Part shown: positions 9,892 to 63,550 of the stretch, piece after piece | Position numbering within the stretch: position 1 is the first letter of the stretch | Layout: every line of letters begins with the position of its first letter | NCBI GenBank assembly: GCA_001799995.1 | Contig: MGUK01000070.1 | Location: 9,056 to 73,055 of the forward strand | DNA: 64,000 nt | Reading direction: 5' to 3' | Source: Elusimicrobia bacterium GWF2_62_30 | Lineage (GTDB): Bacteria > Elusimicrobiota > Elusimicrobia > Elusimicrobiales > UBA9959 | Position numbers and translations under genes: made by a program | Notes under the pieces: model-generated | Seen by the model: only the letters and a program-made list of their open reading frames with translations | Databases searched by the model: none | Told to the model about the DNA's origin: nothing

Positions 9892-9966
9892 ACTCCCTCA
9901 GAAGCGTACAATAGATTCTCGAATTAATACCCACTCGAGCACAGAAAGTATAGCAACTATGGTGAA

Positions 9967-9983: not shown

Positions 9984-9991
9984 TTAATTCA

Positions 9992-10000: not shown

Positions 10001-10032
10001 AAGGGGGATGGATTATTTTGGGAGGTGTTACG

Positions 10033-12658: not shown

Positions 12659-12683
12659 CAGAGCGCCACGCGGCGCGAACAAG

Positions 12684-12692
12684 ATTCTAGCA
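12684..12692 (-). promoter_or_regulatory. Extended -10-like box TGcTAGAAT (minus strand) upstream of the carbamoyltransferase
   Basis: The reverse strand reads cgcaaaaTGCTAGAATcttg. A near-identical cgcaaaaTGCTAAAAT occurs at 33390-33398 upstream of another minus-strand operon. Confidence 0.35.
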
Positions 12693-12761
12693 TTTTGCGC
12701 CTTTTCCGGCCGACGGCGGCCGCGGTGAATTTAGTATACTTTCATTCGGCGCCGCCTGCTT

Positions 12762-13679
12762 ATGTATACCCGCATAGACATCAAAATCACTTTCCGCTGC
12801 AATAACAAATGCGATTTCTGCGCCCAGGGGCATAAGCGGGATATCGTGACTGACCGCACGCTGGAACAGGTCCACAAAGACCTGACTTCCGCCTACGCCA
12901 ACGGCAGCCGCGACGTGGTCTTTACCGGGGGCGAACCGACCATGCACCCGCATATCATCGACTGCGTGGCTATGGCCAAGAAGCTGGGCTATCACAGGAT
13001 ACAGCTTCAGACCAACGGCCGCACTTTCGCGTATAAAGGCCTTCTCGAACGCCTCAAAGCCGCCGGCGCCAACGAAATGGGCCCCTCGCTGCATGGCGCC
13101 AAGCCGGAGACCCACGACGGGCTCACCCACGCGCCGGGCAGCTTCATGCAGACCGTTTCCGGCATAAAGAACGCGGCCAGCCTCGGGATGCACATTATCA
13201 CCAACTCCGTGATAACTTCCGCCAATTACAAAGAGCTCCCCGCCCTGGCGGCGCTGCTGGTGAAACTGGGCGTGAGGCAGTACCAGTTCGCTTTCGTGCA
13301 TATCATCGGCACCGCCCTCGAGAACAAGAAATGGATAGTGCCCAGGAAATCGGAGATAATGCCGTGGGTCAAGAAGGGCCTGGACGTGGGCATAGAAAAA
13401 GACGTCCTCTGCTTCACCGAGGCTATCCCGTTCTGCCTGATGAAAGGCTACGAGCAGTGCGTAGCGGAACGGATAATCCCCGAGGGCCCGGTGGCCGACG
13501 GCGAAAAATTCATCAAAAGCTACGGCGACTACCGCCGCAACGAAGGCAAGATCAAAGCCCCCTCCTGCAGGCCCTGCAGGTATTTCAAGATCTGCGAAGG
13601 TCCCTGGCGCGAGTACCCGGAGCTCTACGGCTGGAAGGAATTCCGGCCGGTGCCGGGAAAGCCCGTTCTCAGGAAATGA
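12762..13679 (+). CDS. Radical SAM enzyme, HxsC-like paralogue family
   Basis: CNNKCDFC (CxxxCxxC), FTGGEPT, C-terminal CRPCRYFKICEGPWREYPELYGWKEFRPV (CxxCx5CxG ... YG..E..P), the motif shared by ten genes in this window. Confidence 0.85.
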   Translation: MYTRIDIKITFRCNNKCDFCAQGHKRDIVTDRTLEQVHKDLTSAYANGSRDVVFTGGEPTMHPHIIDCVAMAKKLGYHRIQLQTNGRTFAYKGLLERLKAAGANEMGPSLHGAKPETHDGLTHAPGSFMQTVSGIKNAASLGMHIITNSVITSANYKELPALAALLVKLGVRQYQFAFVHIIGTALENKKWIVPRKSEIMPWVKKGLDVGIEKDVLCFTEAIPFCLMKGYEQCVAERIIPEGPVADGEKFIKSYGDYRRNEGKIKAPSCRPCRYFKICEGPWREYPELYGWKEFRPVPGKPVLRK

Positions 13680-35991: not shown

Positions 35992-37249
35992 CGGCGAATT
36001 TTCAAGGACCTACGTGCTCCCGTACCTGCTGGGCGTTTACCTGGCGGCCAACGCGGTCAAGGACGTCTGCGTGGTGGTGGACGGGCCTGACTGCATCATG
36101 CAGAAGGCGGACCTCATCTGGGGCAACCACGACCTTTTTTCCACGCTGCTGTCGGGCGAAGGGCGGCACAGGATCCTCTGCACGATGGCCCACCCGGTCT
36201 CTTCCGACCGCAGCCCGGACACGAAGATAACCACGCTTGTCGGGAAGGTGGCCGCCTCGGGGCAATTCGGCGCGGTAGTGCTGACGGCGCTGCCTTTCAG
36301 CAGGATCTCCGGCGTGGATTACGCGGGGATAGCCGCCGCCGCGTCCGCCAGGACGCCGGTGGCCTATGTCCCCGCCAAGTCGCTGGAGCTGGACTGGCTG
36401 GACGGCTACGACGAGACGCTGGCCGCGCTGGCCCGGTCGCTCCCCGCGCCCCGCAAAGCTATAAAGCGCCGGCGCGCGGTAGTGCTGGCCGGCTATATGC
36501 TGGACCGCAACGAATTCGACCACTCGGCCAACCTGGCCGAGCTGCGGCGGCTGCTGGCGGCGGCCGGGCTTGAGACGGTCTCTGTCTGGCCTTCCGGCGG
36601 CGATTGCGCGGAGCTCGCCCGCGCCGCGCAAGCGGGGCTGGTAGTTTCCCTGCCGCACGGCAGGAAGACGGCGAAGGCGCTGTCCGAAAGGTTCGGCGCC
36701 CCGCTCGTGGAGACAGGGCTGCCGCTGGGTCTGCAGGGGACCCTCGACTGGCTTCGGACCATAACCCGGGCGGCCGGGCTCCGCGGGGAGCTGCCGGTAG
36801 CCCTGCGCGAGGAAGCCAGGCGGACGGCCGCGGTCATCGCCCCGGCCCTGCCGGCGCTCCTCCACAAGAACATCCTTTTCACCGGCGACCCGGGCCTTTA
36901 CTCGGCCCTGGCCTCCTTCGCGGAGGAACTGTGCATGGACGCCTCCTGCGCGCTGCTTAACACCAGGCGGCGCCCGGTCCGTACGGCCGGAACGCCTGCG
37001 GTAATGCTGTTCGGCCCGGAGATCCCGGCCGCGCGCGCCGCGGTACAGGCGCTGCCGGCCTACCAGAAGCCGCATCTCGCCGTCGGCGATTCGTTCGCGC
37101 TGTCCGAGGGGCTGAACTGCGGGCTGCCTTTCATGGAGTTCGGCTTCCCTTCGTACGCGCATCACTGCCTGACGGACGAGCCCTTCCTCGGTTTTTCCGG
37201 CGCAAGGAGCCTGGCCGCGCGCCTCCTTAACTGCCTGCACTCCGGTTAG
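35972..37249 (+). CDS. Nitrogenase component-1-like partner subunit (NifK/NifN/BchB-type)
   Basis: Overlaps the fusion gene by 20 nt. YLLGVYLAANAVKDVCVVVDGPDCIMQK resembles the HGP.GC-type N-terminal region of Oxidored_nitro proteins. Rossmann-like repeats follow (RRAVVLAGY..., NILFTGDPG). Confidence 0.65.
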   Translation: MNDTSADGEFSRTYVLPYLLGVYLAANAVKDVCVVVDGPDCIMQKADLIWGNHDLFSTLLSGEGRHRILCTMAHPVSSDRSPDTKITTLVGKVAASGQFGAVVLTALPFSRISGVDYAGIAAAASARTPVAYVPAKSLELDWLDGYDETLAALARSLPAPRKAIKRRRAVVLAGYMLDRNEFDHSANLAELRRLLAAAGLETVSVWPSGGDCAELARAAQAGLVVSLPHGRKTAKALSERFGAPLVETGLPLGLQGTLDWLRTITRAAGLRGELPVALREEARRTAAVIAPALPALLHKNILFTGDPGLYSALASFAEELCMDASCALLNTRRRPVRTAGTPAVMLFGPEIPAARAAVQALPAYQKPHLAVGDSFALSEGLNCGLPFMEFGFPSYAHHCLTDEPFLGFSGARSLAARLLNCLHSG

Positions 37250-43044: not shown

Positions 43045-43182
43045 ATGGCACGCTTTTATTATACCATTATAGCAGGAGACGGGAATTTAAGGGAAAACCC
43101 GCCCGGAACCGGGAAAAGCGCCCTCTGCCGGGCCCCGGCAGACTACCCGCGGACACCGTTCACCGTTGAGCAAACCACCCAG

Positions 43183-45714
43183 ATGGAAAGCATCGTATTC
43201 TTCGGCAAAGGCGGCATAGGCAAGAGCACCATTGCCGCCAGCGTCACGTCCCTCCTCGCGGCCGGGGGCAAGAAGGTCCTGCATATCGGCTGCGACCCCA
43301 AGATGGACTGCACCCTTTCCCTCATGGGCAGGCATATCGAGCCTTTCGCCATCCTGGGCGGCAGTTCCGGCCGCCCCGGCCTGCGCGACAGCATTTACCA
43401 GTCCCCGGTCCGCGGCGTCCACTGCATCGAGGCCGGCGGCCCGCAGCCCGGCGTAGGCTGCGGCGGCACCGCCATAGGCTCCATGCTGGACGCGATGAAG
43501 GACGAGGCCCTGCTCGAAAAAGACGGCTACGGCGCCGCCGTGTTCGACGTGCTCGGCGACGTGGTCTGCGGCGGCTTCGCGGCCCCGCTCCGGCGCGGCT
43601 TCGCGAAAAAGATGGTGATAGTCACGTCGGAAGAGATCCTTTCCCTTTACGCGGCCAACAGGCTGATAATGATGGCCGCCAACTACGCGCGCAACGGCGT
43701 CTACCTGGCCGGGCTCGCGGTGAACCTGAAGGACCAGACCCGCCTTAAGACCGTGGAGGAGTTCGCCCGCGCCGTGAACACCCGCATCCTGGGAGTGATG
43801 CTGCAGGACCCGGCCGTCTCCTCCGCCGAGCGCGAGCACAGGCCCGCGGCCATCGCCTACCCCAAGAGCGGCTTCGCGCGCCGGGTCTGGGCGCTGACGC
43901 AGGAGATACGGACGGCCAGGCCGCCGGCCACGCCGCCGCGCGCCCTGCCGGACCCGGATTTTTTCGCTTTCGCCGAAGGCAGGAGGACGGCCGTGCCCGC
44001 GGGCGCGCCCGCCGGGAAGGGCAGGAAGCAGGCCGTGAGATCCGCCAAGGCCCTTTTTTCCGCCGCCGGCTTCAAACCGGCCGGCATGGAAGACAGCCAG
44101 ATAATCTGCGACTGGAAATGCGGGCAGTCCCTTTACAAGGTAGTGATAGCGCCGGGCTCCTCGGCGAAGGGCGACATGCCCCGCATCTCGGACTGGGCCG
44201 TCTGCTTCCACCCGACGACCCCGCAGGAACCGCCCCCCCCGGGAGGCGCGCTGATGAAAGCCGCCGGGACCCTGGCCGGGCTGCGCTTCGACGAGATGCT
44301 GTCCGTTTTCACCGGGTCCAGGGATTTTTACGGGCCGCTCCTTAACCTGTCCGGCCCGGAAGACACGACCCTGGCCGCCCCCGACACGCCGCGGCGGCCG
44401 CACATGGGCTTCGGCCAGTGGCAGCGCTTCATCTTCCCCGCCGGGCTGAGCCAGGCCTACATCCCCCCCGGCTCGGTCATGGTCGAGCACGGCGATATCG
44501 AATGCCGCTTCTGCTCCTCCGAAAGCGGCATCCTGAACATGTTCAACGACAACCCCGGCATCAAGACCCCCGGCAAGGCCCTGAACATGCCGGTGCTGCC
44601 GAGGATAGACAAGCGCATCGTCAACACGGGCTTTTCCTCCGACGACGCGCTCTTCGGCGACGAGAAGAAAGTGGCGCGGTCCCTGGAAGCCGCGGCGGAT
44701 AAGGCCGGCCCCGGCGGGCTCGTGGAATTCTACGTCGGCTGCTCCCCCATCATGCTCGCCGGCGACACTTCCTCCCTGGCCGCGCGGGTCGAGCGGGAGA
44801 AGGGCGTAAAGATCATGCTGGAGCGCTTCAACAGTTTTTACGAGCACGGCAGCGCCAAGGGCGCCGTGCGCGTTTCGTACATGGCCCACAAACTTTCCAA
44901 GGCTGGCGCCGCGAAGGACCGCGACGTCTACCTGGCGGACTCTCACGACCCCACGGGCGTCCTGGACAAGCTGCTGGCCGAACACGGGATCTCCACCGTG
45001 GACCGCCGCAAGGATTTTTACCGCGAGGCGGCCTCGGCGCGCCTGCAGGTGCTCTCCCATCCCGATACCGTGCTGACCCCGGCTTTCGACAAGGCGGGCC
45101 TGAAGTGGATAATGCCGCCCCAACCCTACGGTTTCGGCGGCACGCACAAGTGGCTCGGCGCCATTGCCTCGGCGCTGGGCAGGAAAAAAGCCCCCGCGGG
45201 CCCCTCGGCGGCCCAGAAGGCGCTGGCGGCGGGGCTTTGGGCCCGCGCCAGCCGCTATACGGCGGCTTTCGTCCTGGCCACCGAGGAGATCGGCCTTCTT
45301 TCCGGGAGCACCGCGCTTAAAATGGTGCCCGTGCTGCCGGTGCTGGCCGAAGCCGGTTTCAAGGTGCGCCTGCTCCTGATGACCGCGGAAGGCCGGGACG
45401 GGAAGGCCGGCAAGCCCGGGCTCCCTGCCGAAGCGGCGGCGCAGCTCCGGGCGCTGAAAGCCTCCCTGCCGGGCACGCACCTCTCCACGGACACCTTCTC
45501 GAAGCAGGAAGAGCTGGCCAGGCTGCTGCGGGCTGACCCGCCCACGCGCCTGGTCTACTCGGACATACGCCGCGACCCGCGCGTGGTCTCCGCCGGGAAA
45601 TATCCGTTTTCGACCTCGCTCTTTGAACCGGGCTACGACGGCGCGCTGGAAACCTGGCGCAGGCTGCTGGCCCTCTGCGAATGGGATTTCAATGAAAGAT
45701 ACCTCCGGAACTGA
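43183..45714 (+). CDS. Second nitrogenase-like NifH-type/NifD-type fusion protein (843 aa)
   Basis: The ATG at 43183 (MESIVFFGKGGIGKST) lies inside track ORF 42187..45714. GCDPKMDC, CIEAGGPQPGVGCGG, FDVLGDVVCGGFA, later VEHGDIECRF and EFYVGCSPIMLAGD. 31 of the first 42 residues are identical to copy 1 (hand count). Confidence 0.8.
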   Translation: MESIVFFGKGGIGKSTIAASVTSLLAAGGKKVLHIGCDPKMDCTLSLMGRHIEPFAILGGSSGRPGLRDSIYQSPVRGVHCIEAGGPQPGVGCGGTAIGSMLDAMKDEALLEKDGYGAAVFDVLGDVVCGGFAAPLRRGFAKKMVIVTSEEILSLYAANRLIMMAANYARNGVYLAGLAVNLKDQTRLKTVEEFARAVNTRILGVMLQDPAVSSAEREHRPAAIAYPKSGFARRVWALTQEIRTARPPATPPRALPDPDFFAFAEGRRTAVPAGAPAGKGRKQAVRSAKALFSAAGFKPAGMEDSQIICDWKCGQSLYKVVIAPGSSAKGDMPRISDWAVCFHPTTPQEPPPPGGALMKAAGTLAGLRFDEMLSVFTGSRDFYGPLLNLSGPEDTTLAAPDTPRRPHMGFGQWQRFIFPAGLSQAYIPPGSVMVEHGDIECRFCSSESGILNMFNDNPGIKTPGKALNMPVLPRIDKRIVNTGFSSDDALFGDEKKVARSLEAAADKAGPGGLVEFYVGCSPIMLAGDTSSLAARVEREKGVKIMLERFNSFYEHGSAKGAVRVSYMAHKLSKAGAAKDRDVYLADSHDPTGVLDKLLAEHGISTVDRRKDFYREAASARLQVLSHPDTVLTPAFDKAGLKWIMPPQPYGFGGTHKWLGAIASALGRKKAPAGPSAAQKALAAGLWARASRYTAAFVLATEEIGLLSGSTALKMVPVLPVLAEAGFKVRLLLMTAEGRDGKAGKPGLPAEAAAQLRALKASLPGTHLSTDTFSKQEELARLLRADPPTRLVYSDIRRDPRVVSAGKYPFSTSLFEPGYDGALETWRRLLALCEWDFNERYLRN

Positions 45715-46987
45715 GTTCCCCAAGACCTTCAACCTGCCCTACCAGCTGGGAGTCTACCTGGCGGCGAACGCCGTATCGGATTCCTGCGCGTTCATGGACG
45801 GCTCGAACTGCGTGATGCCGAAGATAGATTTCATCGCGGGCAATCACGACCTGTATTCCACGCTGCTCTCCCCCGCCGGCACGCACAGGGTCATCTGCAA
45901 CATGGCGGGCCCGCTCCCGCAGAAGAGCAACCCCGAAAAAGCCCTTTCGGGCATGCTTTCCGGCGTGGCCGGCTCCGGCCTTTACTCGGTGATCATGGTG
46001 ACCGGCCTTCCCTTCCAGAAGCTGGCCGGCATGGATTACGAAGGGATAGCCGCCGGGATCAAGGGCCCGGTGCCGGTAGTGGACGTGCCCCCCTCTTCGC
46101 TCGAAGGCGACTGGCTCGACGGCTATGCCGGCGCCCTGGACGCGCTGGCCCGCGCCCTGCCGGAGCGGAAGCTGAAAAAACGCAGGCGCACGGTGGCGCT
46201 AGCCGGCTACCTGCTGGACCGCAACGAGGGCGACCATAAGGCGAACATCGCGGAGCTGCGGCGGCTGCTCGGCCTCTGCGGGCTGGAGCTGGTCTGCGTT
46301 TTCCCCTCCGGCGGCACTTTTGCGGAACTCTCGCGCGCCCTGGAGGCCGAAGTGGTGGTCTCGCTGCCGTACGGGCGCAAGGCCGCCGCCAGGCTGGCGC
46401 AGCGGTCCGGCGCCGTCCTGGTGGAGACCGGGCTGCCGCTGGGCCTCAAAGGCACCGCCGGCTGGCTTAAGGACATCTGCGCGGCCGCGGGGATAAAGGG
46501 CGGGCTCCCGCAGGCCGTAAAGGACCTTGAGCGGCAGGCCGCCGCCGACATCGCCCCCCTGCTCGACGCCATAGCCCACCTGAGCCTGGTCTACGCCGGC
46601 GATCCCTATCTCTTCTCCGGGCTTTCCGCCTTTACCGCCGAGCTCGGCATGCGGCTGCCGCTGGCCATCATAGATTCTTTTCCCAAACCCCTAGGCACCG
46701 GGAAAGTCCCGGAAAGCCTCCTTTTTTCGCCCGGCACCGGGGAGGCCGCCGCGGCGATAGCCGCTTTGTCCGGCTATTCCAGGCCGGCCCTGCTCGCCGG
46801 GAACACGTTCGCCCTCACGGAAGGTTATTCCAGGGGGATCGCCTTCCTGGAGATCGGGTTCCCGTCCTACAGCCACCATTGCCTCGGCCCGGAGCCGTAC
46901 TTCGGCTTCGCGGGAGCGGCGACCCTGGCGGGCCGCATCCTGAACTCCGTCTGCGGCCCCATGACCGAACTGGGCAAGCTGGGCTGA
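45692..46987 (+). CDS. Second nitrogenase component-1-like partner subunit
   Basis: The ATG at 45692 (MKDTSGTEFPKTFNLPYQLGVYLAANAVSDSCAFMDGSNCVMPK) overlaps the fusion gene by 23 nt. It is collinear with 35972-37249. Confidence 0.65.
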   Translation: MKDTSGTEFPKTFNLPYQLGVYLAANAVSDSCAFMDGSNCVMPKIDFIAGNHDLYSTLLSPAGTHRVICNMAGPLPQKSNPEKALSGMLSGVAGSGLYSVIMVTGLPFQKLAGMDYEGIAAGIKGPVPVVDVPPSSLEGDWLDGYAGALDALARALPERKLKKRRRTVALAGYLLDRNEGDHKANIAELRRLLGLCGLELVCVFPSGGTFAELSRALEAEVVVSLPYGRKAAARLAQRSGAVLVETGLPLGLKGTAGWLKDICAAAGIKGGLPQAVKDLERQAAADIAPLLDAIAHLSLVYAGDPYLFSGLSAFTAELGMRLPLAIIDSFPKPLGTGKVPESLLFSPGTGEAAAAIAALSGYSRPALLAGNTFALTEGYSRGIAFLEIGFPSYSHHCLGPEPYFGFAGAATLAGRILNSVCGPMTELGKLG

Positions 46988-49975: not shown

Positions 49976-50916
49976 CAGAAATTCTCCGGCTTTACCGAGC
50001 CCGGGGCGACAGCGGAAGCCTTCAGCTCCCCGCTGCCGTGCACGGCCAGATAATCCGGCCTGGCCCCGCAGCAGGCGGGCTCGAGGCGGCAGCGGCGGCA
50101 GGCGGGGACGGCGGCCTTGGGCGCCGCGTTAGGCGGCAGCACCGGGTCGCCCCGGCGCCAGCGGTGCAGCTCGAAGGCGAAGCCCTTGAACCTGCCAAGC
50201 ACGCAGAGCGGCGTGTTCTGTATGACCGCTTTTATCCCGCTTAGTTTCAGGTAGGCCAGCGCCGTCCGTATGTACGGCACCGCCTGCGTGTAGCTGGGCA
50301 GCAGCGGCTCGGGGCTGACCGCCGCGCGGCCGACATTGCGCATGAAGATGAAATTGACGAAGCCTATATCGGGATGATGCCGGGCCACCCAGCCCGCGAA
50401 AGCGGGCAGCCGGCGGTAATTATGCCGGAAGATTATGTGAAAAAGCCGCGTTTTCCCGGCGGCGCCCAGTTTTTCCAGGTTCTCCAGGCCTTTCAGGGCC
50501 GCCTGGAATTTCACGCTGCGGGTCGCCAGCCGGTAAGTCCTTTCGTCGCAGGCCGGCAGGTTCAGGATGAAGGAATCCACGCTCCCGGCCAGCCTGCGCG
50601 CCAGCCGCATGTCGGCCAGGGCCACGCCGTTGGTGGAAAGCATGAAGGTTTTAACGCCCCGCGCTTTCAGGAATTTTATCCAGCCCTGCAGGCCGGGGCT
50701 GATGGTAGGCTCCCCGCCCCCCTCCAGGCAGACGGCGCCGGCCCCGGTCCTGCCGAGGGCCGCGCGCACTTCAGCGCGGGTCATGGCGCGCCCCGTGGGC
50801 GGGCACTGGCAATAGACGCAGGCAAGGTTGCAGGAAGCCGCCAGGTGCACGGAAAGCTGCCTGCGGACGACCTTCTCCTCGCGCGGTGTCTTACATCTTC
50901 CTGTATGCATGTTCAT
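49975..50916 (-). CDS. Radical SAM enzyme, HxsC-like paralogue family
   Basis: CNLACVYC, LEGGGEPT, CRRCRLEPACCGARPDYLAVHGSGELK. Close paralogue of 42124-43044, with the same TGATG junction to the U32 gene. Confidence 0.85.
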   Translation of the reverse strand: MNMHTGRCKTPREEKVVRRQLSVHLAASCNLACVYCQCPPTGRAMTRAEVRAALGRTGAGAVCLEGGGEPTISPGLQGWIKFLKARGVKTFMLSTNGVALADMRLARRLAGSVDSFILNLPACDERTYRLATRSVKFQAALKGLENLEKLGAAGKTRLFHIIFRHNYRRLPAFAGWVARHHPDIGFVNFIFMRNVGRAAVSPEPLLPSYTQAVPYIRTALAYLKLSGIKAVIQNTPLCVLGRFKGFAFELHRWRRGDPVLPPNAAPKAAVPACRRCRLEPACCGARPDYLAVHGSGELKASAVAPGSVKPENF

Positions 50917-51010
50917 GGGAACCCGCCGCGGGTGCCGGCCGGGAAGGGCCCGGCGGCCCGGAGCGGGAAATACCGGGAGGCAAGTTCTGTCCGGGAACCT
51001 CCCCGGACGG

Positions 51011-51679
51011 TCAGTAGACTATGACCTGGTAGTTCCCCTTTACGAACGGGGCCAGATCCACGAAACCGACCGGGTCGGGGGAAAGCGGCAGGCCCAGCGC
51101 CTTGAGCTTGGCGTGCATCCCGAGCATGGTCGCCGAGCGGGAACACAGCGTATAAGGGATCTTGGCGGCGGTAAAATCGGTCATCGTCAGCCAGAAATAT
51201 TCCTCGCGCGTGCTGGTGAAAGGGCTGCCGAAAGTAAAGCCGGCCGCCGTCTTGACCAGCCTCCCGGGGAACTTGAACTCCTTCTCGACTATCGGGGCGC
51301 CGGGGGCCTCGCCCGCGGGGCGGGGATTTTCCTGCGGCAGGATATAGGTGGTGGTGTCTCCCAGCAGCAGCGGGACCGGCTTGACCTGGGAGAGCACCGG
51401 ATTGGAAGAAACAACGACCGCGCCGGTCGGGATGTTGCGGTAGGACTCCAGGGTGGCCTTGCCCAGGAAGAAAAGCACCGCTTCCCCCTCGAACAGGGCA
51501 TGGACCTCCACGCCGGCCACCTTCAGCTGCATGATATGCTGCACGGCCATCAGGAAGCCGAACCGGTCGTCCACGCTGGAGCGTACGACGACCAGCGCCT
51601 TTTTCGGGTCCTGCTGCGCGTAAGCCTGCGCCGAGAAAAGCGTAAAGAGCGTAAACACCAAAAGTATTTTCTTCAGCAT
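51011..51679 (-). CDS. Secreted protein, weakly DsrE/DsrF-like (tentative)
   Basis: The ATG at 51679 follows AGGAGGGGGG 16 nt after the hxsA stop. MLKKILLVFTLFTLFSAQAYA is a signal peptide. ALVVVRSS...VEVHALFEGEAVLFF and YTLCSRSATMLGM recall the DsrE-fold layout. The upstream RTARTA extension in the track is the repeat read in another frame. Confidence 0.4.
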   Translation of the reverse strand: MLKKILLVFTLFTLFSAQAYAQQDPKKALVVVRSSVDDRFGFLMAVQHIMQLKVAGVEVHALFEGEAVLFFLGKATLESYRNIPTGAVVVSSNPVLSQVKPVPLLLGDTTTYILPQENPRPAGEAPGAPIVEKEFKFPGRLVKTAAGFTFGSPFTSTREEYFWLTMTDFTAAKIPYTLCSRSATMLGMHAKLKALGLPLSPDPVGFVDLAPFVKGNYQVIVY

Positions 51680-51695
51680 TGTCCCCCCTCCTGTC

Positions 51696-52133
51696 CTAAT
51701 ATGACCCGTGCGAGCCGTGCGAGCCGTGCGAGCCGTGCGACCCATGCGAGCCGTGCGAGCCGTGCGAAGCATGCGAGCCGTGCGAAGAATGAGACCCGTG
51801 CGAGGTGTGCGAGCCGTGCGAGGCGTGGGAGCCGTGCGACCCGTGCGAAGAATGAGACGAGTGCGAGGTGTGCGAGCCGTGCGAGGCATGCGACGAGTGC
51901 GAAGCGTGCGACGAGTGCGAGCCGTGCGAGCCGTGCGAGGAATGCGAGCAGGCGGCTTCGGTGGATTTGACCGAAACCAGCAGCGCGCCGAGCCCCATGC
52001 CCAGGCCGATGGTGGCCCCGGCCATGTTGCCGATCTTCGTCTTGGTTATGCGTCCCTCCTCGCAGGTGAGGAACTTTTGAAGGCTCTTTTTAAGACGGGG
52101 AAGCTCGTCTTTTGGTTTTTTGCGTTCAGGCAT
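51696..52133 (-). CDS. hxsA: His-Xaa-Ser repeat protein (precursor/scaffold of the Hxs system)
   Basis: 145 aa. Basic N-region, hydrophobic GNMAGATIGLGMGLGALLVSV, then 27 uninterrupted S-H-x triplets (SHSSHGSHGSHSSHA...SHGSHGSY) running to the C-terminus. It lies immediately downstream of two rSAM maturase-like genes. Confidence 0.8.
   Translation of the reverse strand: MPERKKPKDELPRLKKSLQKFLTCEEGRITKTKIGNMAGATIGLGMGLGALLVSVKSTEAACSHSSHGSHGSHSSHASHSSHASHGSHTSHSSHSSHGSHGSHASHGSHTSHGSHSSHGSHASHGSHGSHGSHGSHGSHGSHGSY
51699..51947. repeat. Degenerate 9-bp-periodic tandem repeat encoding the H-x-S array
   Basis: The plus strand reads (gtgcgagcc/gtgcgaagc/gtgcgaccc...)n. All alternative frames are open, which creates several spurious track ORFs. 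Confidence 0.9.
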
Positions 52134-52155
52134 ATCGTCCCCTCATCCTTCGTCG

Positions 52156-52174
52156 GCGGGACCGCTTGTCCCGC
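52156..52174 (-). other. GC-rich hairpin in the hxsB-hxsA spacer (7-bp stem, 5-nt loop)
   Basis: Minus-strand RNA GCGGGAC-AAGCG-GTCCCGC, 23 nt upstream of the hxsA ATG. There is no following U-run, so it is not a classical terminator. Confidence 0.4.
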
Positions 52175-52183: not shown

Positions 52184-53680
52184 TCACTTTTTGAACACGT
52201 CCTTATACCAGCCCTCGTTAAGCCAGGAGGCCAGGACCTTCCGGTCCTCCGGGCGCGAAAGCTTTTCGAAAATTATCTTCAGTATGCCCTTGTTCATCAT
52301 GCAGCGCTGGTCGTTGGCCTTCTGCGGGAACAGGCTGCCGGAAAAATAGCTGTTGATGGGGCAGACCCCGCAGAACGGCTTGAAAGCGCAGTCGGAGCAG
52401 CCCGGCAGGCTTTCGAGGCAGGAGGAGACGCACAAGGTCTTGGTGACGGGGCTTTCCAGCACCTGGGTATAGGAGGTGTCGGCCACGTTGCCCAGCCGAA
52501 AGCTCTCGTCCCCCATCACGGAAAGCATGCGGCCCTCGTCGCAGGTGTAGATGTCGCCGTTGTAGTTATAGGCCAACTGCCCTATGGCGGCGCCGCAGAT
52601 CATGCGGCAGTCCATATGCGCGGGATCGGAGCCGGACAGGATCTTGGTAAGCAGGGTCTGCGCCGTCTTCTCGCGGATCTTGACGCCCTTGAGGTTAAGG
52701 GTTATCAGGTACTCCAGCAGTTCCCGGTAGAACGCCAGGTACTCCGCCGCGCCGTAGCCGATGCGCTGCCAGTTGGCCGCGGTAAAGCCGAAAGGGTTCA
52801 GCGGGCGCGCGTAGATCTCGCGCAGGCCCAGGCGCAGGTATTCGTCCACCAGCGCGCGGGCGGAGCCGAGCGCCTGCCTGGTGACGGTGGCGAGGGCCGT
52901 TATCCTGTAGATGTAGCCCTTCTTGAGATAGCGCGGCCGGGCCTTGTTGAACTTCTTGATCCAGGAAACGACCTGCGCGTGGCTGGAGCCGCGGCTGTAG
53001 ACGCGCTGCGCGTCGTGCAGCTTGGCCGGGCCGTCGAGCGAGGTGGCGACGCCGATATTGTTGCGGAAGATGAAATGCAGCTTTTCCTCGTCCAGCGAAG
53101 AGAGGTTGGAGACCAGTTTGAAATCCACGCTCTTTTTGAGCTTGGCGGCCTTGTCCTGGGCGTACTTGACCGAGAAAAGCAGGGTCTCCCAGTTCAGGAA
53201 GGGTTCGCCGCCCTGGAACTCTATGACCAGATTCTTCCCGGCGGAGGCGAAAATGAAGTCCAGCGTCTTGCGGGCCGTCTCCACGTCCATGTCGAAGCGC
53301 TTGTCCTCCTCGCCCTTGGCGGAGGCGTGGCAGTACACGCATTTCTGGTTGCAGCGTATCGTGAGGATCATGATATGCAGCGTAGTGCCGGCGAACACCG
53401 AGGAATGGAGGTTGGCGAACTTCTCCGCGCAGGACGCGAAGCCGGCCGATTCCACGAAGAAGCCGCTCTCGGACAGCTCCGCGTATTTGGGATGGCCGCA
53501 GTCCAGCTTCCCGGAGGAGAAAGCCGTGAATTCGTTCTTGTCGAGCACGGCCCAGCCGCCCCAGTCGTTGGTGACCAGCATGCGGCCGAGGCCCATCGGC
53601 TCGAAATAATAAGCGCCGGTCTCGGGAGCGGGCACCACTTCCGTCACGGCCGCGGCGGGCTTGGTTTTCTTGGTCTTCAT
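52184..53680 (-). CDS. hxsB: Radical SAM/SPASM-like maturase (HxsB-like)
   Basis: CNQKCVYCHAS, FQGGEPF, C-terminal Cys clusters (...CDEG..., CSDCAFKPFCGVCPINS), an anSME/SPASM-type layout. The ATG at 53680 overlaps the upstream stop (ATGA); the track start at 53692 is a GTG. Confidence 0.7.
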   Translation of the reverse strand: MKTKKTKPAAAVTEVVPAPETGAYYFEPMGLGRMLVTNDWGGWAVLDKNEFTAFSSGKLDCGHPKYAELSESGFFVESAGFASCAEKFANLHSSVFAGTTLHIMILTIRCNQKCVYCHASAKGEEDKRFDMDVETARKTLDFIFASAGKNLVIEFQGGEPFLNWETLLFSVKYAQDKAAKLKKSVDFKLVSNLSSLDEEKLHFIFRNNIGVATSLDGPAKLHDAQRVYSRGSSHAQVVSWIKKFNKARPRYLKKGYIYRITALATVTRQALGSARALVDEYLRLGLREIYARPLNPFGFTAANWQRIGYGAAEYLAFYRELLEYLITLNLKGVKIREKTAQTLLTKILSGSDPAHMDCRMICGAAIGQLAYNYNGDIYTCDEGRMLSVMGDESFRLGNVADTSYTQVLESPVTKTLCVSSCLESLPGCSDCAFKPFCGVCPINSYFSGSLFPQKANDQRCMMNKGILKIIFEKLSRPEDRKVLASWLNEGWYKDVFKK

Positions 53681-53916
53681 ATTGAATTGCACAGCGCCAT
53701 GTTCACAAATTCCGCTTCTACGCGCTCGGCCGGCACCCCGCCCTTGGGCGTTATGACCGCCGTGATATAGGCGCCGCTGCCGGAAATGGAAAAGTCCGCC
53801 AGGGCGGAATATTCACGCGCCGCCTCTTTAACGGCGGCTTCCTTGTAGATCTCCCGGTGCAGCTTAATGCTTAGCTTTTTTAAGCTTGTCTTTTTGGGGC
53901 TTTTCTTTGTCGCCAT
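53677..53916 (-). CDS. Small protein resembling the N-terminal two-thirds of HxsD (second HxsD-like module)
   Basis: 79 aa. IKLHREIYKEAAVKEAAREYSALADFSIS...ITAVITPKGGVPAERVEAEFVNMAL parallels LNLDTYSLESVYQAAYSMLDKLYFYF...LMVEIKSKENLPMPALEKLKGEFLNELL of the upstream gene. Its stop is coupled to hxsB (ATGA). Confidence 0.4.
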   Translation of the reverse strand: MATKKSPKKTSLKKLSIKLHREIYKEAAVKEAAREYSALADFSISGSGAYITAVITPKGGVPAERVEAEFVNMALCNSI

Positions 53917-54274
53917 ATTTTTCTTCCCAGGGCAGCGCTATGCCCAGCGGGTCCTCGATGTAATCGGCCTTGTCGGCGGAGGCGCCTATCAGCGCCTGGG
54001 CTATCAGAGCTTCGCGGACCTTCCTGGTGCGCTTGGCCACGGAAACGCGCAGCTCGGAGTTGAGCAGCTCGTTGAGAAATTCTCCCTTCAGCTTTTCAAG
54101 GGCCGGCATGGGGAGGTTTTCCTTGGATTTTATCTCCACCATGAGGGTTTTGGCGTTGCGCTTGTCGAAATAGAAATAGAGCTTGTCCAGCATGGAATAA
54201 GCCGCCTGATAGACGCTTTCCAGGCTATAGGTGTCGAGGTTGAGGTTGAAGACCGATTTATTCATTTTATCCAT
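53864..54274 (-). CDS. hxsD: HxsD-like protein
   Basis: FLNELLNSELRVSVAKRTRKVREALIAQAL fits the LLNDYxLRE-type motif I recall for the HxsD family. The ATG at 54274 (MDKMNK) is preferred over the longer track ORF. Confidence 0.55.
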   Translation of the reverse strand: MDKMNKSVFNLNLDTYSLESVYQAAYSMLDKLYFYFDKRNAKTLMVEIKSKENLPMPALEKLKGEFLNELLNSELRVSVAKRTRKVREALIAQALIGASADKADYIEDPLGIALPWEEKYGDKEKPQKDKLKKAKH

Positions 54275-54440
54275 ACATTTTATACAAAAAAAGCCGCAGC
54301 GGGCGCACCATCTCCTGCTATATGTATACCACATTCTCCCTCGTGTTCGCAAGGAAAAATTGCCGCCCGTTCGCACGGGGCGTTCGCTAATTATATTATA
54401 TACCGGCCGGAGGCCGAAGTCCCGAAGAAATCATGAATGC

Positions 54441-55373
54441 TCAGCGCTTTTTGCCGGCAGCCGGCGCGCGGCCTTTCAGCACAGGGCGGAGCTCCCCGGC
54501 GCCGTACAGGTCCAGGTACTGCGGCCGGATGCCGGCGCATTCCCCCCCCAGCGCGCAGCCGGAGCAGACCGGCGGCTTCACCTTGTCTATCTGGATGTTC
54601 TTCTGGTTGAGCATCATATACCTGTCTATCGAAGCGTGCTCGAACCCCTTCATGAAGCAGATGGGGATATCGTCCACAATGTACTTTATGTCGTTCTTGT
54701 CGCAGACCCGCGCGGCCGCGGCCAGGTGGGGCCCTACCTTTTCAAAGCGGGGCACCAGCGAAAGCCGCTTGGGGACCATGCCGAGGATGCAGACCATGTT
54801 GAAAAGGACGTTGAGCACCCCGGGGAATTTTTCCGCCACGAAGGAGGCGTACTCCTCCATCGTATCGTAGTTGAGGGTGGTGATCACCATCAGGATACAC
54901 ATCGTCTTCTCGCCGCCGAGCTTCACGATGTTCTCCATGCCTTTGAGCCGGCGGAGGTATGACCCCTTGCTCTGCGTTATGCGGTCGGACAGCGCCGGCA
55001 GGTGCGACGGGAAATTGACGTGGAAAGTGGTGACGCCCGCGTCCAGCAGGGACCGGGTGAAAGCCAGGTCGGAAAGCCGGACGCCGTTGGTGCGCAGCAG
55101 CACTTTTTCAAAGCCGCTCTTGCGGGCGAAGCGCACCAGGTCCGGCAGCTTGTCGGACAGCGTGGGCTCCCAGAGGCCTATGCGCAGGGTGTCGGCGCCC
55201 GAAGCCAGCAGCTTCTTTATCTGGTCGGGCGCGGAAGGGATGTTATCGGGGAGATTGCTGCAGAACAGGCACTTCTGGTTGCACCTGGTGACCAGGTCCA
55301 CGATGGGATAGACGCTGTTTATCGTATCGTTCTTTTTCCGGCCCGCCGCGCCGCCGCCTTGTTTTTTCATCAT
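54441..55373 (-). CDS. hxsC: Radical SAM maturase (HxsC-like)
   Basis: The ATG at 55373 lies just after the upstream stop. CNQKCLFCSN, C-terminal CSGCALGGECAGIRPQYLDLYGAGELRPV. Its position in the hxs cassette supports the call. Confidence 0.65.
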   Translation of the reverse strand: MMKKQGGGAAGRKKNDTINSVYPIVDLVTRCNQKCLFCSNLPDNIPSAPDQIKKLLASGADTLRIGLWEPTLSDKLPDLVRFARKSGFEKVLLRTNGVRLSDLAFTRSLLDAGVTTFHVNFPSHLPALSDRITQSKGSYLRRLKGMENIVKLGGEKTMCILMVITTLNYDTMEEYASFVAEKFPGVLNVLFNMVCILGMVPKRLSLVPRFEKVGPHLAAAARVCDKNDIKYIVDDIPICFMKGFEHASIDRYMMLNQKNIQIDKVKPPVCSGCALGGECAGIRPQYLDLYGAGELRPVLKGRAPAAGKKR

Positions 55374-55377
55374 AATA

Positions 55378-56388
55378 TCAGCGGTGCCCGGCCGCCCGCT
55401 CCCCCGGGCCCTTTCGCCGGGCCGGTAATTTTTCAAAATTGAGCACGAAAGGCCTCGCGGCCAGCGTGGAGAACAGCGGTTTCCCGCCCCGGAAAGGCTC
55501 CGCCCTGCCGCCGGACACCCGGATCTCGTCCGAGAGCGCCAGCCGCCTGTAGAGCCCGTCGTCGAGCAGGGAGCGCGGCAGGGAGACGGCCGGGCCGGCG
55601 ATGCGCCCGTCCTTAAGGCGCCCGTCCACGAAGGCGTAGCGGTACTTCCCCCAGAAAAGGACGGGCTTGGCCAGCGCGGCTTCCAGCGCGGCCGCGTATT
55701 CCGGCGCGTAATGTTTTATGAAGGCGAAGATGTCCGCGGCCTTGCGGAGGCTTCTGGGGCAGTCATAGGAACAGGGATGCCAGCCTATGACGTGCAGCGT
55801 CTGGAAGACGTACCCGCTGTTGTACTTTTCCACCTTCGCGTAGCTGCGCTGGTCCGCGGCGTTGTCGTTATGGATGCGGGAGGAATAATTGTAGACGTTG
55901 TTCATCCTGAAATCCAGCTTCTCTTTTCCCGCCGTGCCCTTGTACGCCATCTCCACCAGGTCCTGCCCCTGCCCCATCGTGTCGAGCCACTGCCGGTACA
56001 TGCGGATGCAGCATTCCGGGTAGCCCAGCATCACGGACCAGCGCTCGTTGTTCTTCGGGTCCTTCCAGGTCAGCGCCGCCTTCGTCAGCAGTTTCTCGTC
56101 GCGGCCGATGAAGAAGATCTCTTTGCTGCCCTCCATGTGAAAGCAGCTCCTGCCGGCGAACTTTTCGGCCGGGATGCATTTAAGCTTCAGCCTGGCGCAA
56201 AGGTCCTGCAGGAGGGGCAGCCTTTCGTGCGAACAGGAGGTATAGGTGACGGGCTTGGCGCCGGTAAGCACGCCGGCCAGGTCGGAAAAGGTCGGGTCCG
56301 TGATGTTGACGCGGGAGACCCCGGGCGCCAGCGGCCTGGCCAGCCTGATGGTCCCTCCCTCGTAATTGCGGCTTAACAGCGCTTCCAT
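55378..56388 (-). CDS. Cys-motif protein (DUF483-like, tentative), unknown function
   Basis: MLGYPECCIRMY and IGWHPCSYDCPRS form a GYP.CC ... H.PCS..C pair that I associate with DUF483-type proteins. No other motif recognised. Confidence 0.4.
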   Translation of the reverse strand: MEALLSRNYEGGTIRLARPLAPGVSRVNITDPTFSDLAGVLTGAKPVTYTSCSHERLPLLQDLCARLKLKCIPAEKFAGRSCFHMEGSKEIFFIGRDEKLLTKAALTWKDPKNNERWSVMLGYPECCIRMYRQWLDTMGQGQDLVEMAYKGTAGKEKLDFRMNNVYNYSSRIHNDNAADQRSYAKVEKYNSGYVFQTLHVIGWHPCSYDCPRSLRKAADIFAFIKHYAPEYAAALEAALAKPVLFWGKYRYAFVDGRLKDGRIAGPAVSLPRSLLDDGLYRRLALSDEIRVSGGRAEPFRGGKPLFSTLAARPFVLNFEKLPARRKGPGERAAGHR

Positions 56389-56398: not shown

Positions 56399-57364
56399 TC
56401 AGAAAAATATCAGGTACAGGAACGAACCTTTTATCAGCATCGTGGACGCCAGCCCGATCGTGATCCAGGCGGCGAAAGGCATGTCGTCCGCGCCTATCCC
56501 GTACTTGGCGGCCAGCGAAGGCAGTATCCCCACCAGCAGGTAAAGCACGAAGAACGTGGCCATCATGATGAGGGCCATGTGCAGGAACTGCAGGCGCACC
56601 GGCGACAGGAGCAGGGCCGAGAAGAACAGCCCGGCGAACACGCGGAACCGCCGCCTGAACGGCTCCTCCTCCAGCTTCCGCCCGGCGTCCCCCCCCCAGA
56701 AAAGCAGCGCTATCATGGCCGCCAGGGTCAGCATGGTGGAGACCCGCTTGTCGAAATGGAAGAACCAGGTAACGCACATCAGCACGCTGAAGAGCACCCC
56801 GGCGAGCAGCATCAGCCCGGCGGCGTTCTTCAGCTTTTCCAGCGAGGCCCCGGCCATTTCCCGCCAGAGGTTCTTTTCCGTGCTGGCCCGCGCGAACCGG
56901 ACCAGCTTCCAGGCGGTGTCCGCCCAGACGAAGACCGCGGCCACGGTGATGGTGTTGAGAAAAAGGTTGAAGGCGGGGAACAGCGGGATGTAATGGCGGA
57001 AATAATATTTCAGCGGGAGCAGGAGCACCAGCACGAAAAAGAGCTTGGCGTCGCCGGCCGACCACAGGTTGAAATGGAACAGCAGGAAACCGCAGACCAG
57101 CGCGAAGAGCGAGTTTACCGCGGTGAGCAGCAGCAGGCGCGGCCAGCTGCCCGCGAAAAGAGTGTTGAGCAGGAGCTCCTCGGTAACATAGGGGGCGTAC
57201 AGCCTGTAAAGAGAAACTCCGCCGTAAGCCAGCACCGCCCAGGCGAGCCCCGCGAGTATCCAGAAATTGCGGATCTTCCCCTCCCGGGAATCGGAGAAGG
57301 AGGTGGCCGCGCAGATAACGGCGAGGGCCGGGACCAGGGCCAGGTCGAGGATGTCGGGCTTCAT
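56399..57364 (-). CDS. A24-family (prepilin/preflagellin-type) aspartic membrane peptidase with extra C-terminal TM segments
   Basis: First Asp motif SDSREGKIRN (D-x5-I-x-N) in TM1-2, second Asp motif WSAGDAKLFFVL (G.GD.KL). About 190 additional polytopic residues follow. Confidence 0.6.
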   Translation of the reverse strand: MKPDILDLALVPALAVICAATSFSDSREGKIRNFWILAGLAWAVLAYGGVSLYRLYAPYVTEELLLNTLFAGSWPRLLLLTAVNSLFALVCGFLLFHFNLWSAGDAKLFFVLVLLLPLKYYFRHYIPLFPAFNLFLNTITVAAVFVWADTAWKLVRFARASTEKNLWREMAGASLEKLKNAAGLMLLAGVLFSVLMCVTWFFHFDKRVSTMLTLAAMIALLFWGGDAGRKLEEEPFRRRFRVFAGLFFSALLLSPVRLQFLHMALIMMATFFVLYLLVGILPSLAAKYGIGADDMPFAAWITIGLASTMLIKGSFLYLIFF

Positions 57365-62533: not shown

Positions 62534-63550
62534 TTATATTATTTTTTTAGCGCCGGGTTTTTTTACCGGCTTGAGCTCGCCGCCCCCGTAGACCCGCAGG
62601 TATTCCTTCCAGATGCCTTCGCAGCCGGCGTAAAGGGCGCAGCCCCGGCACTTGGGCGGCTTGGCGCGGCCCAGTTCCCGGCGGCCCTTGATATAGTCGA
62701 GGCTGACATAGTCCGGTGCCACGTGCTGCACGTTGCGGTAGATCAGGAGCTCGCGGGCTTCGCTGACCTGCAGCGGGTAATAGCCTTCGAAATAACACAG
62801 CGGCACGTAGCGCGCGGACCAGTTGCAGGAGGCCAGGGCGTTGGTGGCCCCCGCCAGGCGCGGGGCGGCGATGTCGAGGCAGTCGCGCATGTACGGGGCG
62901 CAGTCGGAAATGCGCGGCATAAGTTCCTTGAAATTGTCGTGCACGCCGCCATAGCTGGGGTCGGCGAAAATGAACTCGGCGTTATAAAGGCCCAGGCCGG
63001 CTATGAATTTGCCGGTGGCGGGCAGGGAGCGGTAGTTGAGCCGCGTCACGGCGGTGTTGGTGGCTATTATCCCCTTGAAGATCTTCCTGACGTTCTCTAT
63101 GCCCTTGAGCAGCTGGCGGAAGCTGCCTTCCACCCGGGTAAGGGCGTCGTGCACCCGGGCGTCCGGGCCGTGGATGGAGAAGATTATCTCGCTCAGGCCG
63201 CTGTCCACCGCGGCGCGCGCGAAAGCGGGGTAGGAGAAGAGGCGCCCGTTGGTGGCTATGGCCACCCGCTTGAAACCGGAGCGGCGCGCGAAAGCGACGA
63301 GGCGGAAGAAATCGGGGTTGATGGTATTCTCGCCGCCGGCGAACTCCAGGTAGTCGCAGCCCCGGGCCGCGGCTTCCTTTATCTCCAGCCTGAGCTCGAA
63401 GATGGTCTTGGGCTTGATATCCCTTTTGCCGGAATTAATGCAGAAGACGCAGCGGTTGTTGCACTGGTAGCCGGGCACCAGCACGACTTTTTTAAAGGAG
63501 ATCTCATTTGCCATTACAGGTAGCGGGAGGGCGGCGGCGGCGCGGGTCAC
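62534..63550 (-). CDS. Radical SAM enzyme, HxsC-like paralogue family
   Basis: CNNRCVFC, FAGGENT, C-terminal CRGCALYAGCEGIWKEYLRVYGGGELKP. The start is either a GTG at 63550 (GTGA overlap with the upstream stop) or an ATG at 63514. Confidence 0.8.
   Translation of the reverse strand: MTRAAAALPLPVMANEISFKKVVLVPGYQCNNRCVFCINSGKRDIKPKTIFELRLEIKEAAARGCDYLEFAGGENTINPDFFRLVAFARRSGFKRVAIATNGRLFSYPAFARAAVDSGLSEIIFSIHGPDARVHDALTRVEGSFRQLLKGIENVRKIFKGIIATNTAVTRLNYRSLPATGKFIAGLGLYNAEFIFADPSYGGVHDNFKELMPRISDCAPYMRDCLDIAAPRLAGATNALASCNWSARYVPLCYFEGYYPLQVSEARELLIYRNVQHVAPDYVSLDYIKGRRELGRAKPPKCRGCALYAGCEGIWKEYLRVYGGGELKPVKKPGAKKII

Follow-up and report, generated by a model that had tools for sequence, protein, structure and literature searches.

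A His-Xaa-Ser repeat precursor of the HxsA4 class in an Elusimicrobia genome, and a candidate A24-type peptidase for its leader

The DNA analysed here, called the window throughout, is a 64,000-nt stretch of the genome of Elusimicrobia bacterium GWF2_62_30 (GTDB family UBA9959; assembly GCA_001799995.1, contig MGUK01000070.1, forward strand, positions 9,056 to 73,055), and the gene under study is hxsA, which encodes a His-Xaa-Ser repeat protein on the minus strand. Feature coordinates are window positions, residue numbers are those of HxsA unless stated otherwise, and the window's own genome is referred to as G000. The hxsA frame begins with an ATG at 52133-52131 and ends with a TAG at 51698-51696, and its 145-aa product reads MPERKKPKDELPRLKKSLQKFLTCEEGRITKTKIGNMAGATIGLGMGLGALLVSVKSTEAAC-(SHx)27-SY. 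A preliminary description of this DNA had reported 27 uninterrupted Ser-His-Xaa triplets after a segment ending in STEAAC, followed by Ser-Tyr and the stop codon, which was confirmed with a translation script; the interval named there, 51699-51947, corresponds exactly to the array plus the Ser-Tyr codons. The name HxsA was also right, as the protein scored 87.7 bits against the NCBIfam model HxsA4 (NF038313, cut-off 55) and has HxsB, HxsD_rel and HxsD encoded upstream. Against HxsA3 (NF038309) it scored 55.8 bits, under the cut-off of 65, and in a six-frame search of the genome with the HxsA4 profile the best single stretch alone reached 46.2 bits over profile positions 1-92. HxsA has the HxsA4 architecture, with the box residues F21, E25, E26 and G27 and 27 tandem units. 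We are therefore highly confident that hxsA encodes an HxsA-type precursor; it is a real gene and a fresh member of an already named family, HxsA4, rather than of a new one. The His-Xaa-Ser system was itself defined by comparative genomics by Haft and Basu, as cited in PMC9062424.

The possibility that the frame is a stop-free artefact of low-complexity DNA was ruled out by its ribosome-binding site, by its GC content at third codon positions, which is in the range of the coding frames of the window, by the family match of the minus-strand frame, and by orthologues in six or more further genomes of the genus (G322, G323, G334, G344, G338 and G172). Overlapping open reading frames (ORFs) on the plus strand, such as 50828-51970, were without homologues. 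No terminator was found after hxsA. The upstream gene hxsB ends 50 nt ahead of the hxsA start, and inside this spacer lies a 7-bp GC-rich hairpin (GCGGGAC / GUCCCGC; 52156-52174, minus strand) without a U-tract. The features of the locus are collected in Table 1.

Table 1. Features of the hxsA locus, in window coordinates.
Feature	Position	Strand	Basis
hxsA, 145-aa HxsA4-class His-Xaa-Ser repeat precursor	51696..52133 (including stop)	-	Translation, NF038313, orthologues
Ribosome-binding site AAGGAUGAGGGG, 5 nt before the hxsA ATG	52139..52150	-	Read from the sequence
Conserved N-terminal box, residues 11-34 (LPRLKKSLQKFLTCEEGRITKTKI)	52032..52103	-	Alignment of 156 unique N-termini
A38-G39, family-wide small residue just ahead of the hydrophobic stretch; candidate A24 cleavage site	52017..52022	-	156-sequence alignment
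Hydrophobic Gly-rich segment, residues 37-55 (MAGATIGLGMGLGALLVSV), signal or anchor helix	51969..52025	-	Hydropathy
Linker KSTEAAC, residues 56-62; possible signal peptidase I site between TEA and AC, and conserved Cys	51948..51968	-	Type I comparison
Core array, 27 x (Ser-His-Xaa)	51705..51947	-	Script count and Tandem Repeats Finder
Terminal Ser-Tyr; Tyr sits where the His of the next unit would fall	51699..51704	-	Translation, homologues
hxsB, radical SAM/SPASM maturase	52184..53692	-	TIGR03978, 467.4 bits (cut-off 370)
HxsD-like small protein, 79 aa	53677..53916	-	NF038315 (HxsD_rel), 59.1 bits (cut-off 41)
hxsD, open frame; likely start Met at 54274	53864..54376	-	TIGR03976, 59.5 bits (cut-off 50)
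HxsC-like small radical SAM enzyme, not canonical HxsC	54441..55436	-	HxsC 67.6 bits (cut-off 267.9); HxsC4 71.5 bits (cut-off 500)
336-aa protein, weakly DUF483-like	55378..56388	-	phmmer, identities
Divergent A24 (FlaK/prepilin peptidase-type) membrane aspartic peptidase, candidate HxsA leader peptidase	56399..57364	-	PF01478, motifs
Secreted 222-aa protein, tentatively DsrE/DsrF-like, with conserved Cys	51011..51679	-	Strong ribosome-binding site

By script count, the variable position of the 27 units is occupied by Gly (15), Ser (6), Ala (4) or Thr (2). Tandem Repeats Finder reported a period of 9 with 26 copies, 76% matches and zero indels, as well as a higher-order period of 63 bp (3.1 copies, 82% matches). 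The 54 Ser and His codons vary only synonymously (TCG 24, TCT 2, TCC 1; CAC 21, CAT 6). From this degeneracy it had been argued that the repeat reflects selection on the peptide and not slippage, and the first half of that argument holds, Ser and His being kept through synonymous codons, while the second does not. Because the last seven units are near-identical, orthologues differ in length (13, 13 and 17 units; by eye, some 35 in G172) and the Gly codon is homogenised per lineage (GGC/GGG in the window's HxsA, GGT in G323), the array has been shaped jointly by recent in-frame slippage or duplication and by purifying selection on Ser and His.

A word-index search with the leader only returned one relative, and an exhaustive HMMER search was used instead. 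This gave 375 representatives at E <= 1e-3, which share the leader, since most matches begin at about residue 5-12. HxsB was above its cut-off in 48 of the 301 genomes of the phylum, and within the window's family 66 of the 80 genomes and 12 of the 13 genera have HxsA4, as do 47 of 52 genomes of high quality. The 52 distinct complete precursors examined, drawn from the window's family and its sister families, carry 5 to 27 repeats, with 36 at one locus (L016). Three aromatic C-terminal classes account for most of them: ...SHGSY (23), ...SH[AQS]RGGWC (19) and ...SHG[QAS]W (9). In the SY and HG[QAS]W classes the aromatic residue falls on the His position of the next unit, so that the check proposed in the preliminary description, conservation of the terminal residue and of the repeat phase in homologues, was passed.

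The window's HxsA shares with its HxsA4 and HxsA3 relatives the N-terminal box, the hydrophobic stretch, the tandem H-x-S array and the HxsB, HxsD and HxsD_rel neighbours. It differs from them in having 27 repeats against a family median of 14 (range 5-36) and in belonging to a separate subclass, which we call type I, found in 7 of the 80 family genomes and recognised by the pattern MAG[AT][ST][IV]G[LV]GMG ... S[ST]EAAC[ST]HS ... SY. Carriers of type I HxsA are G000, G323, G334, G338 and G172, together with G322 and G344, which have two copies each, and the S[ST]EAAC motif is present in all nine type I sequences. A further difference is that no protein of the window reaches the HxsC4 or HxsC cut-off: the best window score against HxsC4 (NF038332, cut-off 500) was 129 bits, for the protein encoded at 62534-63550, and canonical HxsC (TIGR03977, cut-off 267.9) was not found in the genome, which is 84% complete and gave 26 HxsC-like matches with a best score of 166 bits.

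Some relatives had unusual loci. At G296:C45 (L018/L050, about 10867-13290) the HxsA4 frame reads through the array into an 803-aa frame and on into a radical-SAM-like gene (SAM, S-adenosylmethionine), and a second frame closes with the usual ...SHGQW; the long frame may reflect a frameshift within the repeat or a sequencing error. In three loci of the same genus (L033 6517-8437, L035 11443-13281 and L038 11059-12922) a barnase-like ribonuclease and a barstar-like partner are encoded where HxsA would be, between HxsB and a radical SAM/U32 triad, and these loci additionally encode a protein of about 230 aa starting TLTTYYPAPYGGYVS.

HxsB of the window is 72-76% identical to that of other type I loci, and the HxsD-HxsB-HxsA module recurs in G322, G323, G338 and G172. 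HxsA is very probably a substrate of HxsB. The ORF for the 79-aa HxsD-like protein and the end of hxsD share 53 nt. In the distant Hxs loci L096 and L098-L101 the corresponding slot holds a small ORF of 64-80 aa, and phmmer detected an HxsD-like small ORF in 46 loci of an 80-locus sample, which consists of one genome per species scanned with the HxsA3 leader and holds only Clostridial HxsA3 loci, not HxsA4. A homologue of the HxsC-like enzyme encoded at 54441-55436 was found in the type I locus of G322.

The leader was compared across 156 unique N-termini. Its most conserved part is the box, where E25 is kept in 97%, G27 in 94%, F21 in 89%, E26 in 88% and K16 in 78% of the sequences; the consensus is [FLI]-P-K-[IL]-K-K-x-[IL]-x-x-F-L-x-[SDE]-E-E-G-[KN]-[IM], with the core FLxxEEGxI. 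The box is common to the HxsA3 and HxsA4 models and is probably a docking element for the maturation enzymes. Eleven positions past the box Gly there is a small residue (G 81%, A 16%) that aligns with A38/G39 of the window's protein, and it is followed in the relatives by 11-15 hydrophobic residues and then by A-x-A columns (51% and 75% Ala), which fall 13-18 residues past the conserved Gly. In 81 Clostridial HxsA3 precursors the junction Gly never varies and is accompanied by N at -10, R at -7 and K at -5; in 70 of the 81 the distance from this Gly to the first His is exactly 18 residues, and [VA]-[FY]-A-[AG] directly precedes that His. Residues 37-55 of the window's HxsA have a Kyte-Doolittle mean of 1.78 over 19 residues, and most relatives reach a 19-residue mean of 1.33-1.45. 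Since the region before the helix has 11 Lys and Arg against 5 Asp and Glu, the array is predicted to lie outside the cytoplasm. The preliminary description had placed a class III-type cut at G35, between KIG and N. This site was rejected, as the position is not conserved (the closest orthologues first sampled read G, G, N, S and N there, and later ones M or V), and A38/G39 is the likelier place for such a putative cut.

A candidate enzyme for this cut is encoded 4.3 kb upstream of hxsA on the same strand, at 56399-57364. The match of this A24-like protein to PF01478 is weak (E 0.003, 18.4 bits against a cut-off of 26.5), and all 23 members of an alignment of the family (A4) match the model, with a best E of 1.4e-10. 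In these 23 sequences D25, N33, W101, G104, D105, K107 and L108 of the peptidase are invariant, and in an alignment of 70 proteins that includes the window's five of them are invariant or nearly so (D25 99%, N33 99%, G104 97%, D105 100%, K107 100%), with a C-terminal P-F-A motif also kept. The two catalytic Asp residues stand in the contexts D-x5-I-x-N and G-D-x-K-L, and the sole PDB sequence match of the profile, spanning both Asp motifs, was the preflagellin peptidase FlaK (3S0X, E 0.025). NCBIfam has no model for these A24-like peptidases.

The gene is a regular member of related operons. In the 80 Clostridial HxsA3 loci an A24-like gene was present in 72 (59 of the 64 loci of at least 12 kb), compared with 77 for HxsB, 74 for HxsC and 71 for HxsD, so that the A24-like peptidase is as constant an operon partner as these three. 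The dominant order there is HxsD-HxsD_rel-A24-HxsC-HxsB-HxsA, and no pilus ATPase, platform protein, pilin or PilD homologue is encoded in any of the 80. In Clostridial loci L098, L099 and L100 the A24-like gene lies between the HxsD-like gene and HxsC, and the window's protein matches the three products by phmmer at E 2.7e-5, 6.6e-10 and 8.8e-10, respectively. Orthologues of the window's A24-like protein were found in 8 of the 80 genomes of its family; seven of the eight also have type I HxsA, and in the eighth the locus is interrupted by contig ends. Besides this group there is a longer A24-like one, present in 67 of the 80 genomes, nearly the same set as HxsA4, and several genomes of the sister families have weak A24-like genes 7-24 kb from HxsB on the same contig.

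Contig C57 of G000 (L190, 7396-16671) carries a second radical-SAM array, which includes an A24-like gene of the long type (9251-10450). Neither an HxsA-like precursor nor HxsB was found on this 19.5-kb contig, and the partner precursor of the array may lie in the unassembled 16% of the genome.

The best-described member of the wider system is the canonical four-gene HXS of Pseudomonadota, HxsD-HxsB-HxsC-HxsA, an anti-phage system that blocks DNA entry (Li et al., Nat Commun 2026, PMC13128918). In the same work, the sole experimental paper on the system, HxsB, HxsC and HxsD were needed for N-terminal cleavage of HxsA, by a non-canonical route, and for a change of +8 Da on one SHRSS motif, after which HxsA was exported; 99.7% of HXS systems were placed in Pseudomonadota (PMC13128918). 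The window's locus resembles this system in its homologous HxsB and HxsD and in having an H-x-S repeat protein, exported in the canonical case and predicted to be exported here. Canonical HxsA is a protein of 214 aa with a Sec-type signal peptide, five basic-rich repeats and a peptidoglycan-binding domain (PMC13128918), whereas the window's HxsA has a long conserved leader and 27 neutral repeats, and no peptidoglycan-binding domain was found in it with Pfam. The variant in the window differs from the published one in other respects as well: it is without canonical HxsC, it adds the HxsD-like protein, a dedicated A24-type peptidase and many radical SAM genes, and its HxsA4 is near-universal in its family, a lineage-core distribution rather than a patchy one. 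Hxs systems thus extend further than published, into Clostridia (80 species loci) and into Elusimicrobiota (the 47 of 52 good genomes of one family counted above), where they are differently built.

For the chemistry, the triceptide synthases HaaB, HtkB and YhhB offer a comparison. Acting on H-x-x motifs, these radical SAM/SPASM enzymes cross-link C2 of the His with C-beta of the second residue after it (PMC11499958). The H-x-S unit fits this register (an aromatic residue or His, any residue, then the C-beta-linked residue), and HxsB is likewise a SPASM-type maturase. The two differ in that the sole mass change reported for an HxsA is +8 Da and a cyclophane gives -2 Da. HxsB is not a member of the YhhB, GrrM or AmcB families, having scored 53-56 bits against cut-offs of 310-445.

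Putting these observations together, we consider it fairly probable that HxsA is an exported, radical-SAM-modified repeat precursor of the HxsA4 class, with a leader, a class III-like junction and a repeat core, from which the leader is removed by the A24 peptidase so that the array ends up at the envelope. The basic leader, through its box (LPxLKKxLxxFLTxEEGxI), would serve as docking site for HxsB, HxsD, the HxsD-like protein and at least one HxsC-like enzyme. The junction would be formed by basic residues, the small A38/G39 and the hydrophobic Gly-rich helix, and the core by Cys62, the 27 Ser-His-Xaa units and Ser-Tyr. Radical-SAM chemistry would act on the His/Ser units in the cytoplasm, possibly by linking His C2 with Ser C-beta in the triceptide register (PMC11499958). 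On membrane insertion of the helix the N-terminus would stay inside and the array would end up outside, and the FlaK-like A24 peptidase (56399-57364) would cut off the leader at the cytoplasmic face, leaving a poly-imidazole array that is tethered to the envelope or released there. Of the functions suggested in the preliminary description, a scaffold for radical-SAM modification appears the best supported, by gene context and by analogy with the canonical system (PMC13128918).

As for the peptidase step taken by itself, we lean slightly toward cleavage of the leader by the A24 peptidase at a class III-like signal. The resemblance to class III signals, as processed by PilD, TadV/CpaA and FlaK, lies in the basic residues, the small G/A and the hydrophobic helix, and in the fact that the system encodes a dedicated aspartic membrane peptidase of the GxGD type, in which both Asp motifs are kept. 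The class III-like signal proposed in the preliminary description thus gains from the conserved small residue and from an A24 peptidase that is core to the HxsA3 operons (72 of 80) and widespread in the window's family, and loses from the missing Glu at +5 and from A-x-A columns that look equally Sec-like. No mention of A24 or prepilin peptidases was found in the HXS paper (PMC13128918) or in a review of the leader proteases of RiPPs (peptides made by the ribosome and modified after translation), nor was a link between an A24 peptidase and the Hxs system found in the searchable literature. The A24 peptidase is a concrete candidate for N-terminal processing of HxsA in the leader-bearing HxsA3 and HxsA4 systems; if it does act in this way, family A24 would for the first time be seen to remove the leader of a modified peptide. 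The FLxxEEGxI box, the invariant small residue and the terminal aromatic residue in phase with His are experimental handles.

A number of points weigh against an A24-processed, radical-SAM-modified HxsA. To our knowledge, the HxsA3 and HxsA4 systems are annotation families, without experimental work. The single change of +8 Da in the canonical protein gives no prediction for 27 units. The junction has neither the Glu at +5 of bacterial type IV pilins nor a charged residue at -2, the leader, with its length of about 38 aa and its strong conservation, does not resemble that of ordinary prepilins, and the short hydrophobic stretch with its conserved A-x-A gives most relatives the look of a Sec signal. 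Hxs loci are also unlike class III systems in being without pilus ATPase, platform or pilin genes, and the window's peptidase is very divergent (the Pfam E of 0.003 being for that sequence alone). Foldseek with an AlphaFold2 model of the A24-like protein (predicted local distance difference test, pLDDT, 75) returned only all-helical membrane matches and did not recover FlaK; because this fold comparison was uninformative, the A24 assignment rests on sequence motifs. Strict adjacency of the A24-like gene to type I hxsA was rejected, since the flanks read around the two best-sampled type I loci, those of G322 and G323, contain no such gene; in G322 an A24-like gene is found about 30 kb off on the same contig. 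Finally, type I HxsA and the peptidase are co-inherited in a whole module of about 20 kb, so that their phyletic match is not evidence of a specific interaction.

The alternative that survives best is ordinary Sec export, in which the hydrophobic stretch is the h-region of a long signal peptide, signal peptidase I cuts after TEA or EAA to release a soluble periplasmic Cys-(SHx)27-SY, and the A24-like protein acts elsewhere or non-proteolytically. The A-x-A columns at 13-18 residues past the conserved Gly would suit such a cut, as would the fixed spacing of 18 residues to the first His and the [VA]-[FY]-A-[AG] before it in the Clostridial precursors; in most relatives, judging from their hydropathy, the stretch is too short to anchor the protein in the membrane, and canonical HxsA has a Sec-type signal peptide. 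Sec export nevertheless leaves unexplained why the A24-like gene is as constant as HxsB, HxsC and HxsD and why an invariant small residue follows the basic residues at the start of the stretch. In the window's own HxsA the stretch is 19 residues long and more hydrophobic, and a cut after EAA would place Glu at -3. Cleavages by an A24 peptidase and by signal peptidase I are, besides, mutually compatible. We consider Sec export in place of A24 processing unlikely.

It is a little harder to see the locus as an anti-phage HXS system like those of E. coli and Klebsiella, with a mature periplasmic HxsA that blocks entry of phage DNA. HxsA, HxsB and HxsD are homologous to those of the DNA-entry-blocking system (PMC13128918), and one HxsA3 locus, L099, is set among integrase, transposase and AbiEii genes. 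However, HxsA4 is a lineage core trait by the genome and genus counts given above, and not a patchy one; its neighbourhood in the window is metabolic-looking, and no mobile or defence genes were found in the hxsA surroundings there. The peptidoglycan-binding domain is missing, the x residues (G, S, A, T) include none of the basic ones invoked for DNA binding, and the 84%-complete genome is without canonical HxsC. We therefore rate a phage defence role as distinctly unlikely. Because of the neutral x residues, the absent peptidoglycan-binding domain, the near-universal presence and the metabolic-looking neighbourhood, phage defence fits poorly and a role in metal or polyanion binding at the envelope fits better, and the chance that the latter rather than phage defence is the end function of HxsA seems about evenly poised.

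Lipidation of Cys62 as the +1 residue of a signal peptidase II site would put the array on a lipid anchor. In favour of this, every type I sequence has a Cys just ahead of its first H-x-S unit, and a number of further HxsA4 proteins have the Cys too, in some cases within a good lipobox (S-L-A-S-C, A-L-G-A-C). It is made very improbable by T-E-A-A-C falling outside the usual [LVI][ASTVI][GAS]C, by the Glu at -3 and the Lys/Glu between the stretch and the Cys, and by the presence of Cys in only about 7% of the relatives. Just as improbable is an unmodified His-rich metal store or chaperone, or the precursor of a small peptide-derived cofactor built from its C-terminal Ser-Tyr in the manner of mycofactocin or pyrroloquinoline quinone (PQQ): the 27 His in 83 residues, the conserved terminal aromatic residue and the sub-threshold matches of neighbouring radical SAM enzymes to MftC and PqqE (at most 57 bits against cut-offs of 265 and 381) recall such systems, but no model of them passed, no MftB- or PqqD-type partner was seen in the window, modification of the repeats themselves is favoured by the tight linkage to HxsB and HxsD across the phylum, and a repeat number of 5 to 36 suits a polymer-like product, not a single cofactor. 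Both ideas had been raised in the preliminary description; the terminal aromatic residue of the cofactor proposal was indeed conserved in the 52 precursors, though nothing else fits mycofactocin or PQQ, and a plain metal buffer may still describe the end function while leaving the obligatory radical-SAM partners unexplained.

The radical-SAM-modified, A24-processed precursor can be extended to a broader and much more speculative proposal, which we think improbable as a whole. HxsA3 and HxsA4 would represent a hybrid of a ribosomal-peptide and a pilin pathway, in which the leader guides radical-SAM modification of a poly-(His-x-Ser) core and then serves as a class III signal removed by a dedicated GxGD (A24) intramembrane protease. 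The Elusimicrobial product would be an envelope-tethered poly-imidazole housekeeping chain, tailored by linked HxsC-like enzymes, U32 pairs and a Group VI nitrogenase-like reductase, and would not serve phage defence.

The wider surroundings of hxsA include radical SAM, U32, nitrogenase-like, cysteine desulfurase and flagellar-type genes. The gene for the 222-aa protein begins 16 nt past the hxsA stop, behind AGGAGGGGGG, and is translationally close-coupled to hxsA. Its product looks DsrE/DsrF-like at both termini, keeps one Cys (TLC) without exception and is interrupted by some 80 disordered residues; the AlphaFold2 model had a pLDDT of 59.6, and the best Foldseek matches, to the DsrE-like structures 2fb6 and 3mc3, were not significant (E 0.2-0.3). 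Homologues lie downstream of type I hxsA in G322 (one copy) and G323 (three tandem copies). The 336-aa protein, which contains a GYPECC...WHPCSYDC motif, had no Pfam or NCBIfam match. It is 51-72% identical to its counterparts in G323, G338 and G324 and is conserved in type I loci including G172, and by phmmer it is weakly similar (E 5.8e-5) to a PF04467 (DUF483) protein encoded just before HxsD in L101 (Nealsonbacteria).

Genes for nitrogenase-like fused proteins lie at 43180-46987 and 33493-37249 on the plus strand of the window. The D-like domain of the fusion was found in 11 of the 301 genomes of the phylum; all 11 are HxsB-positive, with the domain encoded on the HxsB contig about 3-35 kb away. 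The cassette was rejected as a requirement for HxsA, being absent from 47 of 58 HxsB-positive genomes, and the nitrogenase-like gene is an accessory to Hxs clusters. The Clostridial HxsA3 operon of L099 (617-17058 of an ENA metagenome scaffold) has two tandem precursors, one of them with a weak dockerin match, and lies between an AbiEii gene and, at its opposite flank, a transposase and an integrase gene, a mobile or defence-island setting unlike that of the Elusimicrobial loci. Far from hxsA in the window, at 2908-4665 on the minus strand, a 585-aa ORF combines a YscJ_FliF_C domain with FliG middle and C-terminal domains, an apparent FliF-FliG fusion.

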